Shown: in pieces, positions 20,064 to 61,986 of the stretch | Layout of the letters: every line of letters starts with the position of its first letter | Numbering within the stretch: the first letter of the stretch is position 1 | Assembly: GCA_951406725.2 (NCBI GenBank) | Contig: OX597843.1 | Span: 17,856,001 to 17,920,000 of the forward strand | Length of the DNA stretch: 64,000 bases | Source: Octopus vulgaris | Taxonomy: Eukaryota | Direction of reading: 5' to 3' | Translations under genes and position numbers: made by a program | The notes under the pieces: generated by a model | Seen by the model: the letters and a program-made list of their open reading frames with translations, nothing else | Told to the model about the DNA's origin: nothing | The model's database searches: none

Positions 20064-20288
20064 ATGTTTGTGTGTCTGTGTTTGTCCCCCTAGCATTGCT
20101 TGACAACCGATGCTAGTGTGTTTACGTCCCCGTCACTTAGCGGTTCGGCAAAAGAGACCGATAGAATAAGTACTGGGCTTACAAAGAATAAGTCCCAGGG
20201 TCAAGTTGCTCGATCAAAGGCGGTGCTCCAGCATGGCCGCAGTCAAATGACTGAAACAAATAAAAGAGTAAAGAGTAAAAAGAGTAAA
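19835..20288 (+). mobile_element. SINE family A, near full length
   Basis: A box TGGCTGTGTGG, B box GGTTCAGTCCC, internal (TA)n(TG)n, family tail. Confidence 0.88.
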
Positions 20289-20290
20289 GT

Positions 20291-20374
20291 CTTACGGCCG
20301 TTTCGAAAAGATGTAGGTTGCTATGGGTGAGCTAACTCCAACCATAGCAATACTCTGTATTTCTCTCATCAGAG
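20291..20374 (-). ncRNA. Type I hammerhead motif with long stem II and weak stem I
   Basis: Minus strand: CT-CTGATGA-GAGAA..TTGCTATGG..CCATAGCAA..TTTTC-GAAAC-GGCC-GTA-AG; palindromic GGCC loop III; stem I only 2 bp. Confidence 0.6.
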
Positions 20375-20525
20375 TTGATAGAATCATAAAGGCTAAAATT
20401 TCAAAAGAAATGCTGGGTTAAATGATCTGAGAAATCGAATGTTTGATCGGACCATTGTCTTCGGGCAGACGAAGTTCAAATGTATTACGACACGATGTAT
20501 AATATGACGTATATTATGACGCTAT

Positions 20526-24368: not shown

Positions 24369-25477
24369 CAGGGGTTGGACAAAATAATGGAAACACCTAG
24401 TGTCCTATCATCAGTAAAAAGTAATTAAAATTCATTAAAACGACAGATATCAGACTTTCATAAAGGTCAAATTGTTGATGCTCGTATGGCAGGTGCTAGC
24501 GTAACGAAAACAGCCGAAATGTTGGTTGTATCAAGAAGTACTATCTCGAAAGTAATGACAGCCTTTGAAAAAAAGGGAAAACCCTCCTCGTCGAAACAAA
24601 ACTCCAGAAGAAAACCCAAACTTTCAGATAAAGACCGTCATATTCTTATGTGAATCGTTAGAAAAGATCACAAAAGTACAGCTCCCAAAATTACTGCAAA
24701 GCTTAATGGCTACCTCGAGAACCCAGTTTCCACAAAAACTGTTCGCTGGGAGCTGCACAAAGCCGGATTTCATGGGAGGGCAGCAATCAGAAAACCACTG
24801 CTTTCAAAAACAAACGTTGCAAAGCGTTTAGAGTGGAGTAAAAACCTACAGAATTGGTCCCTAGAGTTGTGGAAGAATGTTATTTTCCCGAACGAGTCAT
24901 CCTTTACTGTATTTCCGACCACCGGTCGAGTATACGTGTGGAGACAGCCAAAAGAAGCATTTGACCCAGACTGCCTACTTCCAACTGTTAAACACGGAGG
25001 AGGACCTGTGATGATCTGAGGGGCTATATCATGGAAATCCACCGGCCTAATGGTTTCCCTTCATGGCAGAATTAATAGTCAAAACTATTTAAGCATTTTA
25101 TCTGATCAAATTCAGCCTATGGTTGCGGAACTGTTTCCATAGGGAAACGCAATCTTTCACACAGCTAAAGTTGTTACTGAATGACACGAGAAACATTCTA
25201 GTGAAGCTGAACACCTTATCTGATCACCACAGTCCCTAAATCTCAATATTATTGAACATTTATGGTGCATTTTAGATAAACAAATAAGGAGATGATATCG
25301 TTCACCATCATCACTACAAGAACTGGAGACTGTTTTAGCTGAAGAATGGACTAAAATTCATTCGGAAACAATTCAAGCTTTGTACAAGTGTAATTACTGC
25401 CAAAAGTGGTCCTACCCCATATTAAAATAAATTTGTTTGGAATTTTAAAGTGTTTCCACTATTTTATCCAACCCCTG
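24369..25477 (+). mobile_element. Tc1-like (DD34E) transposon, decayed
   Basis: TIRs CAGGGGTTGGACAAAATAATGGAAACAC / GTGTTTCCACTATTTTATCCAACCCCTG flanked by TA; remnants WKNVIFPNESSF, TVKHGGGPVMI, SPQSLNLNIIEHLW with stops and frameshifts. Confidence 0.9.
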
Positions 25478-51106: not shown

Positions 51107-51650
51107 TATTAAATATATTAATATATATATTGCGAGGGTATGAGAGATATTGGTGTCTAGCAGACCCAAAGAGTGTCAGGTAACTCTAAGTAAGTTCTAT
51201 GGATAGACCGTGGTTAAACTCTTGGTTCGATAATGATACGCGTGAGGAGTCTAACGTAGGTCTTGTATTAGCATGCTATAGATATATACAATAGACAGAA
51301 TGAGATAACAAATCCAGGGCTGTGAGGAGTCTTCAGAACATTTATAAAGAACGTGTGGTAGGAAGCTTGTATCCCAACCACATGGTTCCGGGTAAGCGTC
51401 TTCTACTATAGCCTCGGACCGAATAAAGCCTTCTGGGTGGATTTAGGATGCAGAAACTGAAAGGCGGTCTACCAGCATGATCGCAGTCAAATGACTGAAA
51501 CAAGAATATATATATGTATATATGCATATATGTGTGTATGTATAATACACACACACACACACACACACATATACAAACAAAATTGTGTGTGTATGTATAT
51601 ATATATATATATATACAGGTACATATACACACTCATATATATGTACATAT

Positions 51651-51722
<72 letters not shown>

Positions 51723-52074
51723 ATATATATATGTATGTATATATATATGCATGTATATGTATATATATGTATATGTATATATATGTGTGTGTGTCTGTAT
51801 AATATAAATGTAATTTAGGTTCAGTTGAACGTGGAACTTCAATTGAGGCACCTTGTTAGCCCGAACTCATCTGCTCTCAGACATTATCAGGTGAGTATCA
51901 AACTCTGCAGAGAATTTTGTTCCACCTCATATCCTTGCAATGTGTGCAGAAAACACGATGCAACTTAACGAATAAATCCACTCCTTTTGGTTCAGACATG
52001 TACTTTATATAAAGATACTTTCCAAACACTTTGGAAGTGCTGATTCCAGGCTAGGTGGGTAACATATAAATGAG

Positions 52075-52475
52075 AACAAAGATGTATAAGAGTCAATTCA
52101 TTACGGCCGTTTCGAGCGACTCCTTTAATTGATCATTGAAAGCATTACATCGTTACAAAGAAAACCCTTCTCATCAGATGACCGCATAAAAGACAAGCTA
52201 GATATTTAAACATATTCATATCATGGATAGAGAGCAAATATTTACATTGCTTCGGCTGGTAAATTTTTTGGCAGAAAATTTTGCAGCGGAATCATTGTAA
52301 ATATTTGCTCCCTATATTCTCTCTACGAATATGCTTAAATATCTAATTTATCCATTATCCTTGAAGTCTATGCGGTCCTCTGATGATAACGGTTCTCTTT
52401 GTAATAATATAATGCTTTCATTGATCAATTAAAGGAGTCGCTCGAAACGGCAGAATTGACACGTATACATCTTTG

Positions 52476-52477
<2 letters not shown>
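52075..52477. repeat. Diverged ~400-bp palindrome with a hammerhead motif in each arm
   Basis: Arms e.g. CCGTTTCGAGCGACTCCTTTAATTGATCA / TGATCAATTAAAGGAGTCGCTCGAAACGG and GAGCAAATATTTACA / TGTAAATATTTGCTC; centre ~52272. Confidence 0.85.
52098..52181 (-). ncRNA. Type I hammerhead motif (left arm; the right-arm copy at ~52376-52453 on + is damaged)
   Basis: TCAT-CTGATGA-GA..TC-GAAAC-GGCC-GTA-ATGA; stem II eroded. Confidence 0.6.
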
Positions 52478-52520
<43 letters not shown>

Positions 52521-52799
52521 CACACACATATATATATAATTATTATTTGAGGGAATATTAATCCTAACTTACAGGGAAAAATTCAATTTAGAAATACTAA
52601 ATCAAATTTCACACAATATAATATACATATATATATAAAAATTAGAAAAAAAACACCTTTTATCAATTCAAAATGAACAATTAAATTACACCATCTAGAA
52701 AATTACATATAATAGAAATATTAAAATTAAAATAACAATAATATACCGATGATTAAGTAAATTGCAAAAAAATAATAATAACGTATATATTTGGTAGAA

Positions 52800-52904
52800 T
52801 AACGACACGTGTTTCGTGGCTATATTTAAGAAATGTTTATTGTAAAAAAAATTAATAGTAGAAGTAAAATCACTTCGATATAAATATAGCCACTCATCAG
52901 GTTA
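52800..52904 (-). ncRNA. Type I hammerhead ribozyme with 13-bp stem II and large AT-rich loop
   Basis: TAAC-CTGATGA-GTGGCTATATTTA[52 nt]TAAATATAGCCAC-GAAAC-ACGT-GTC-GTTA; canonical core, palindromic ACGT loop III. Confidence 0.8.
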
Positions 52905-53689
52905 AAAATAAACTAGAATAATAAAATATACTTATATATATATATACATATATATAAGATACTAAATATACATTAAGGGAAAACTAAAAACAATACTTAA
53001 ATTATTAAATACTTTAAAATTAATTAATATACACAATGATAGTACAAGTCATTGATATTGTAATCAAAATAAGAAATGATTCAAATATAGACAAACTCAT
53101 TAAATAAGCTAACTATATATTTAATGTATGTGTGTATTATCTATAGATTTAATATATCACTCAATAATATAGTTCACTAAATATCAATTAAAATAATACC
53201 TAATTATCTTAAATGTAATGCTACTTAAAAACTCAACTTCGAAACATAAAGTTATTGCTAAGCAACATTATTATTACAGCGGTAAGCTGGCAGAATCGTT
53301 AGCACACCGGGCAAAATGGTTGGCGGCATTTCAACCGCCTTAACGTTCTGAGTTCAAATACCACCGAAGTCGACTTTGCCTTTCATCCTTTCGGGGTCGA
53401 TAAATAAGCACCAGTAAAACACGGGGGTTGATGTCATCGACTTACTCCCTCACATAAAATTTCAGGCCTTGTGCCTGTGGTAGAAAGGATTTGCGTGGCA
53501 CCTTCTACTATAGCCTCGGGCCGACCAAAGCCTTGTGAGTGGATTTGATAGACAGAAACTGAAACAAACCCGACGTATATTTATATATACATATATATAA
53601 TAATAATATTAGGGAGTAAATTCAAACTTACAGGGGAAAATTAGATTTAGGATTAAATCAAATTTCACAGTATAAATATATAAAATATG

Positions 53690-53857
53690 AATTAGAGATA
53701 AAACCACTATTAGGCAACTCAAACAGGGATAGACATAAACCAAAACATAAAAATAAATAAAATTAATATAATATACAAAATATACAAAATATAAAATTTA
53801 AAATTTATATTATTTAAAAAGTTTTAATTTATATTTATAAATAAATATTTATATATA

Positions 53858-53921
<64 letters not shown>

Positions 53922-54028
53922 GAATTTAAATTAATTGTAATTCGAATTGAATTATGGCCGTGAAACGTACGTAGTGGTTTTACTTATTATATTATATTAA
54001 ACTTTTTAATACTTTTTGATAGTTATAA

Positions 54029-54124
<96 letters not shown>

Positions 54125-54155
54125 TATAGAGACTTAGTAATTTTAATATTTCTAT

Positions 54156-54197
<42 letters not shown>

Positions 54198-54402
54198 TAA
54201 AATTAAAAAATTAATAGTTTAAAAACTTATATATTTAAAATTTAAAAAAAAATATATATATATAAAATTTATTTATAAATAAAAATTAAATAATATAAAT
54301 TTTAAATTTTATATTTTGTATATTTTGTATATTATATTAATTATATGTATTTTTGTGTTTCGGTTTATGTCTTGATTTGCCTAATAGTGGTTTTATCTCT
54401 AA

Positions 54403-54404
<2 letters not shown>
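53690..54404. repeat. AT-rich fold-back element related to the 52540-53200 element
   Basis: ATTAGAGATAAAACCACTATTAGGCAA..AATATACAAAATATACAAAATATAAAATTT and its reverse complement at 54285-54404; leader AACTTACAGGG..TAAATCAAATTTCAC shared with 52566-52612. Confidence 0.75.
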
Positions 54405-54468
<64 letters not shown>

Positions 54469-61115: not shown

Positions 61116-61234
61116 GTATAATTTTACCCTCACGGGCTATCCTTTACTGGAAAGCAATACTCTTGTATTGCATTACTATATATATATATATATATATATA
61201 TTGATCAAAATAAAAACATGATGCCAAGGATTCA

Positions 61235-61312
61235 GCGGTACATATGTTTCGGGCCTTTATTAGACAGATTTATAACAATGCATAATGTATGTCTGTGGCC
61301 TTCTTCAGCCGC
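61235..61312 (-). ncRNA. Type I hammerhead ribozyme, left arm
   Basis: GCGG-CTGAAGA-AGGCC..GGCCC-GAAAC-ATAT-GTA-CCGC. Confidence 0.8.
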
Positions 61313-61767
61313 GCACAACAGCTTCCACAAGGACATGTGTTACATCAAAATTCTTGGTTGGGGATGCAAATCCTCTCATTCGCGTACGACATAATGCGGC
61401 AGCAGCTTAGAATTGAAGCGTCCATCTCTTTCCTCTCTCAATGTAGAATGAGGAAATTAGGATGTTGAATTAATGTAAATAAATTAATAAATAAATACAT
61501 ATATAGACGTGAAGGAACCTGGTAATAAGAGTAATTACCCCTATTTACTCTTATTACCAGGTTCCTTCACGTCTATATATGTATTTATTTATTAATTTAT
61601 TTACATTAATTCAACATCCTAATTTCCTCATTCTACATTGAGAGAGGAAAGAGATGGACGCTTCAATTCTAAGCTGCTGCCGCATTATGTCGTACGCGAA
61701 TGAGAGGATTTGCATCCCCAACCAAGAATTTTTGATGTAACACATGTCCTTGTGGAAGCTGTTGTGC

Positions 61768-61845
61768 GCGGCTGAAGAAGGCCACAGACATACATTATGC
61801 ATTGTTATAAATCTGTCTAATAAAAGCCCGAAACATATGTACCGC
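61768..61845 (+). ncRNA. Type I hammerhead ribozyme, right arm
   Basis: GCGG-CTGAAGA-AGGC..GCCC-GAAAC-ATAT-GTA-CCGC; predicted cleavage after A61841. Confidence 0.8.
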
Positions 61846-61946
61846 TGAATCCTTGGCATCATGTTTTTATTTTGATCAATTTACTCCACCACCTACACCA
61901 CCAAACGGTATACACAGGTGCTTATAATTATCAAGTACTCACCCCG

Positions 61947-61986
<40 letters not shown>

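Follow-up and report, generated by a model that had tools for sequence, protein, structure and literature searches.

An old head-to-head palindrome with hammerhead motifs in Octopus vulgaris, probably an insertion of a Penelope-like terminal module

The inverted repeat found near 52 kb in a 64-kb stretch of Octopus vulgaris DNA (the whole stretch analysed, hereafter the window) very probably goes back to the terminal module of a Penelope-like retroelement (PLE) that inserted here long ago, its mirror arm being made during integration. Penelope membership is the most likely assignment, drawn from the structure of the locus and not from protein, and it is made to PLE level only, with Penelope/Poseidon, Neptune, Nematis and Hydra as the candidate clades. 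The layout itself is already known as the inverted-pLTR structure of Penelope-like elements. The locus has two arms placed head to head with a one-sided extension (Table 1), it belongs to a dispersed repeat family whose copies fold back at variable points, and its arms have decayed independently.

Table 1. Features of the 52-kb palindrome and its flanks (coordinates refer to the window)
Feature	Coordinates	Strand	Basis and remarks
Left flank, (TA)/(TG) microsatellite	51500..51814	.	Left end of the element not base-exact
One-sided extension of ~260 nt, downstream of the left hammerhead	51815..52074	-	Contigs of the same repeat family
Left arm, pLTR-like element end	52075..52272	-	Arm alignment; lacks ~13 nt present in the right arm and in other copies
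Left minimal type I hammerhead (predicted from sequence)	52098..52181	-	Sequence and descriptor
Head-to-head junction, almost spacerless	52269..52277	.	Centre scan; several left-arm contigs end at 52276
Right arm, inverted copy, stops at the mirror of 52075	52273..52477	+	Self-comparison, arm alignment
Right hammerhead relic	52376..52458	+	Core 52380-52386, GAAA 52444-52447
Right flank, (CA)/(TA) microsatellite	52478..52540	.	Sequence inspection

Self-comparison of the 64-kb window by blastn returned the inverted repeat at 52075-52477 with 76% identity over 423 columns with gaps (E 2e-86), and the global alignment of one arm to the other scored 159.5 against a maximum of -62 among 200 shuffles, which establishes the palindrome of about 400 bp reported in the initial annotation. 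The best centre lay near 52270 with almost no spacer between the arms, which may overlap by a few bases at the junction. Between the arms (52075-52272 against 52273-52477), 164 of 189 ungapped columns were equal (87%), which corresponds to a Jukes-Cantor distance of 0.146, about 0.07 for each arm. The palindrome had also been described as older than, and unrelated in sequence to, another one at 61.2 kb. The arms of the latter are 98% identical by self-comparison, so the word older is justified when judged by the divergence between arms (13% at the 52-kb locus), and homology between the two inverted repeats was absent, with local scores (18-22) below the shuffle maxima (24-29). RNA of the whole 52-kb repeat is predicted to fold into a single hairpin at -197 and -222 kcal/mol, in which 322-340 of its 403 bases pair. 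Microsatellites flank the palindrome on both sides, but are common throughout the window, and no target-site duplication was recognisable at the flanks.

The left arm carries a predicted hammerhead that faces outward. Its core CUGAUGA (52177-52171) is followed by a stem II domain of 57 nt (52170-52114), GAAA (52113-52110), a one-pair helix III with the palindromic loop III GGCC, a GUA triplet (52104-52102) and a stem I of 4 bp. The stem II domain is closed by G10.1-C11.1 and has two mismatches near its base, at positions 3-4 (closed energy -5.0 kcal/mol), and G10.1 stands directly after A9, the unpaired base that PLE hammerheads typically have between positions 9 and 10.1 being absent in this arm. 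On the right, G10.1 is replaced by U at 52387 and a deletion of 4-5 nt after 52451 removes the cleavage triplet, the missing letters of which are present in contigs of other family copies. The complete set of minimal type I features (core boxes, G10.1-C11.1, palindromic helix/loop III, NUH and a helix I of 4-5 bp) is found in the left arm only, and the right copy is dead as judged from its sequence. The earlier description of a hammerhead in each arm, pointing outward, is accurate for the left arm with its core and triplet, while the right arm holds a relic that has lost both the triplet and G10.1.

A relaxed descriptor, limited to the core boxes, a palindromic loop III and NUH, gave five matches in the 64-kb window (61772+, 61308-, 52900-, 52177- and 20372-); 200 shuffles averaged 0.035 matches and reached 1 at most. 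The descriptor missed the right arm, where G10.1 is U and the triplet is deleted. A stricter, stem-based descriptor returned 0 matches across the window, its length limit excluding even the clean copy at 52900. Against Rfam, the segment 51800-52480 matched no hammerhead model at E<=10, and for the whole window no hammerhead stood among the best 150 of 264 matches, nearly all of which were microsatellite-driven miRNA models. Neither arm formed the three-way junction in free folding, as is expected given that minimal hammerheads need a dimer according to parts of PMC4209133.

Whether stem II pairs fully in a family consensus had been raised together with the initial annotation. When the family-supported arm was chosen for each column, the resulting stem II was closed and 10 of its first 12 positions paired (4 of them G-U, -9.1 kcal/mol), but an A-C mismatch was kept at position 3. 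The family hammerhead is thus predicted to be foldable, yet with incomplete pairing in stem II. The presence of the motif in each arm would follow from its belonging to the terminal repeat of the element. Because the two ribozymes lie on opposite strands, they offer no dimer in cis, which minimal hammerheads need, and a read-through RNA would form one long hairpin burying the ribozyme. We infer that the double ribozyme is a by-product and no functional unit.

Contigs from 4 of 24 listed public runs (three of organism A and one of organism B) were aligned to 51810-52477 at 80% likeness. Between 556 and 663 contigs per run aligned in all four runs from the two organisms, covering 30, 30, 30 and 28 of 30 bins. 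All bins of the extension were covered in 4/4 runs, and since contigs reach from the left extension into the hammerhead (as at 51957-52183), the extension is family sequence and not host DNA. It had been taken for unique sequence; it is unpaired in the palindrome, but forms part of a dispersed repeat family, and may be either a lengthy tail or the beginning of the element's body. Only 11-21 contigs per run were at least 99% alike and no listed contig runs across the centre of the locus, so this particular insertion was unseen in these runs. Among the runs sharing query words, none contained half of the words and no RNA run was among those listed.

From the joint tables, 22 distinct joints were classified (15 of 62 rows and, in table 5c, 12 of 13 rows listed, the majority supported by a single contig in each run). 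The direction reverses in 10 of these 22, each time at another point and never at the centre of the 52-kb locus (52131/52166, 52157/52400, 52161/52246, 52163/52399, 52224/52283, 52140/52420, 52276/52342, 52235/52290, 52133/52396 and 52138/52277), and the remaining 12 are indels or swaps between arms. Of the ten fold-back joints, four were seen in more than one run (2-3 runs), two of these four in both organisms, and each is supported by one contig per run; where a joint has both of its sides in the left arm, as two do, either head-to-head or tail-to-tail orientation fits the table. Some contigs extend 43-444 nt beyond 52276 into unlike sequence with no second piece listed, loose ends at 52276 were found in 9 contigs of one run, and folding back appears to be optional among family copies. 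Other members of the family are palindromic with centres of their own, as is predicted if the mirror arm is made by integration. These variable centres support the initial proposal that the fold-back layout arises repeatedly, probably through integration, and the mirror arm was most likely made anew at each insertion. Neither outcome that would have counted against that proposal was seen: the family hammerhead is predicted to fold, and palindromic copies exist elsewhere in the family.

The contigs also depart from the window sequence at particular points. At 52075, the mirror of the right-arm end, 32-54 contigs per run depart, the loose consensus beyond it still resembles the extension (agreement about 0.6), and there is a hint that 52075 is a common family end. 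A possible truncation hotspot is 52133, which marks the middle of a 10-nt palindrome within the stem II loop; there, 18-21 contigs depart in three of the runs. Each run also has 19-27 contigs that depart at 52163 and continue into a sister subfamily, whose core reads CUGACGA and whose stem I seems to be longer.

The decay of the arms was read from the table of differences against family contigs, in which 40 of 105 rows were listed, 17 of them inside the repeat; the arm count took 16 rows, row 52274 (one contig) being left out. Among those 40 rows, other family copies flagged 12 of the 25 arm mismatch columns, and in 11 of the 12 the other arm has the family letter, the left arm accounting for 5 derived changes and the right arm for 6. 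Each arm also has one deletion of its own, that of about 13 nt on the left, where many aligned contigs show 13-15 gap letters, and that of the cleavage site on the right. The arms have therefore mutated independently, in agreement with the initial annotation. Mismatches between the arms number 8/88 in the hammerhead and 15/81 in the inner part, a non-significant difference (p 0.11), and selection or conversion acting on the hammerhead part was set aside on this value.

Several other elements were noted in the window. A third hammerhead family occupies 52530-52910 (-), 330 nt to the right of the palindrome, with the core CUGAUGA at 52900, a perfect 13-bp stem II (-17.8 kcal/mol), the palindromic loop III ACGU, a GUC triplet and a stem I of 4 bp. 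It is the cleanest motif of the window and occurs singly, with about 270 nt downstream to a microsatellite, and it reached 13.6 bits (E 2.8) against Rfam Hammerhead_1. A decayed inverted repeat, AT-rich and extended by about 80 nt on one side, spans 53671-54424 (region 53591-54424 with the extension). It shows homology with the downstream portion of the element at 52900 (74% over 144 columns), contains the 3' half of a hammerhead with a GUAC loop at 53962 (+), and is probably a third case of the same palindrome layout. A single hammerhead-like copy at 20255-20525 (-), with its core at 20372, lies between two inverted SINE-like copies; it has a long stem II, the GGCC loop III and GUA of the 52-kb family and a decayed stem I, and shares the 3' motif alone with that family. 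In the young palindrome at 61197-61950, loop III is AUAU and the stem II register beside the core is imperfect; its extension, about 65 nt long on one side, is AC-rich and reminiscent of the AC-rich RT start region described in PMC11167929. A splice-donor-like motif is present in the extensions of both the 52-kb and the 61-kb palindromes (51890-51898 and about 61935-61943), on the strand opposite to the hammerhead. An 8-mer common to these two extensions is at chance level, being found in 29% of shuffles. Two further inverted pairs (48.9/50.2 kb and 19.8-20.9 kb) were considered as hammerhead palindromes and turned out to be dispersed SINE-like copies. From their motifs, the sequences at 3623-6276, 10093-10995 and 24654-25019 appear to be pieces of broken LINE-like ORFs, a 300-codon mariner-like transposase frame and a Tc1-like fragment.

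The coding content of the locus was searched in its decayed frames of 37-94 residues. Pfam returned 0 families in 3/3 translated fragments, word searches for an ORF remnant of PLE type gave no match, and no RT or GIY-YIG remnant was found in these fragments, which are short enough and decayed enough to make this weak counter-evidence. By eye, the inner arms resemble a GIY-YIG C-terminus and the extension a PLE N-terminus, a likeness that no search supported and that was not used as evidence. The two phmmer matches (P0005, MIF4G repeats, and P0006, a repeat peptide) have scores summed over tandem repeats and are unrelated to PLEs. Scanning for a 20-nt motif yielded ten loci, 5 from metagenomes, 5 from prokaryotes and 0 from viruses, every one a GC-rich chance match no longer than 26 nt. 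No second direct pLTR copy lies within the 64-kb window; such a copy is in any case unexpected where insertions are short and truncated.

The missing coding remnant in the fragments searched would suit a non-autonomous palindromic element (MITE-, foldback- or retrozyme-like) moving as a ready-made double-hammerhead unit, and two fold-back contigs of high depth in run X5 (184 and 264) could be amplified palindromic subfamilies of such an element. MITEs and foldback DNA transposons have fixed TIRs at both ends, a constant interior and a fixed target duplication. The 52-kb locus instead has unequal ends, with a 260-nt overhang of family sequence and no fixed target duplication, and the centres of its family are variable, with 10 distinct fold-back points among the copies in the 22 joints listed, all of which speaks against a MITE or foldback transposon. 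Retrozymes, for their part, are arranged head to tail with canonical hammerheads in the parts of PMC7229834 that describe them, and head-to-tail same-strand units as in a non-LTR retrozyme did not turn up in the self-comparison or with the descriptor. A ready-made palindromic unit is on the whole improbable. We give similarly little credence to an inverted duplication of a single copy after insertion, by repair or replication fold-back, or to a fusion of nearby inverted copies by deletion. The region is indeed rich in repeats and microsatellites, and the decayed inverted repeat at 53671-54424 is nearby, but the family letters lost in one arm are kept in the other (11 columns and one deletion per arm), and such alternation implies that the arms split from a copy near the family state. 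Moreover, the right arm stops at the boundary of element and microsatellite, the unique host flank is not mirrored, and the layout recurs in the unrelated hammerhead family at 61.2 kb and in other copies.

Target preference could also have brought two independent insertions of the same family head to head, and insertions do cluster in the window, as seen from the three other hammerhead-bearing insertions, one of them 330 nt away. Against this stand the almost nil spacer, the truncation at a nearly identical family position and the equal decay (5:6), which make the coincidence very improbable. That a read fold-back during assembly created the palindrome would agree with the lack of a listed contig across the centre. 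However, the arms are separated by 25 substitutions and several indels, and each of them alternately matches other copies and has its own deletion, a pattern which an assembly fold-back cannot produce. An artefact, which the initial annotation had already thought unlikely, is accordingly given almost no probability.

The integration of a PLE terminal module, the reading we prefer, would proceed from a compound (TA)/(TG)/(CA) microsatellite as the insertion target. The PLE endonuclease would nick the AT-rich DNA, and reverse transcription would begin inside the RNA, at a point we infer to be downstream of the hammerhead. The mirror arm may then have arisen through renewed priming on the opposite target strand at a start site lying nearer, the cDNAs being joined via a short overlap, for which we see a slightly better than even chance, or by self-priming or fold-back followed by copying back, whose chance we put a little under even. 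The product would consist of two 5'-truncated copies abutting head to head, the second of them inverted, and one of the arms would be longer by about 260 nt. The one-sided extensions in the 64-kb window measure about 65, 80 and 260 nt. It seems unlikely, although it would be instructive, that reverse transcription in this family begins at two sites, 27 and about 287 nt beyond the hammerhead cut, whose spacing of about 260 nt would far exceed the known 30-40 nt, and that each palindromic insertion forms by twin priming from both.

The structure by itself is ordinary PLE debris and its value is comparative. The many fold-back junctions and the unequal arm ends provide material for mapping the RT starts of PLEs and the origin of the inverted arm, both of which are left open in the parts of PMC3846280 and PMC11167929 that deal with them. 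If the two-start reading is true, old and young palindromes of several hammerhead families would offer a genomic test between twin priming and antisense self-priming. No description of hammerhead palindromes of this kind in cephalopods was found in the PMC and bioRxiv listings searched. Penelope-like families are listed for Octopus vulgaris in a portion of PMC13282606, and the 52-kb family may already be named in its supplements.

Among the known systems, non-LTR retrozymes share with the 52-kb family a type I hammerhead inside a short, apparently non-coding repeat. Retrozymes form head-to-tail tandems with canonical hammerheads, and the animal non-LTR retrozymes have been proposed to derive from PLE pLTRs, according to sections of PMC7229834 and bioRxiv 10.64898/2026.07.22.740005; unlike these same-strand tandems, the copies described here stand head to head. 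Closer are the dual minimal hammerheads 100-700 bp apart on opposite strands, related to truncated PLEs, that are reported in parts of PMC4209133. The 52-kb cores are likewise about 200 bp apart on opposite strands, and the 4-bp helix I, long helix II, G10.1-C11.1 and palindromic 15.2-16.2 with loop III are those of the PLE minimal hammerheads. The helix II domain of 57 nt is longer than the 7-8 bp given there, the 9/10.1 bulge is missing and the right copy is dead.

Passages of PMC8557442 describe the typical PLE insertion as an inverted 5'-truncated copy beside an upstream pLTR, with a one-sided tail of 30-40 bp and a bias towards microsatellites. Head-to-head junctions with overlap were read as self-priming on an antisense template (PMC3846280, in part) and the inverted terminal repeats of Drosophila Penelope vary in size (PMC2377424, in part). 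In vitro work on the PLE protein of Anolis showed that it cleaves AT-rich DNA on both strands and extends both, that reverse transcription starts at two internal sites whose spacing equals the tail, and that the hammerhead is protein-assisted and dispensable for insertion, as far as the relevant portions of PMC11167929 go. The 52-kb locus is unlike the EN+ PLEs in its extension of about 260 nt against the published tail of 30-40 nt, and in having no ORF or downstream direct pLTR in the window and no visible target-site duplication, a feature that varies among these elements. With the EN+ PLE insertions, as covered in parts of PMC3846280, PMC8557442 and PMC2377424, it shares the head-to-head inverted 5'-truncated copy with arms of about 200 bp, the one-sided 3' extension, the little or no spacer, the variable size of the inverted repeat and probably the microsatellite or AT-rich target.
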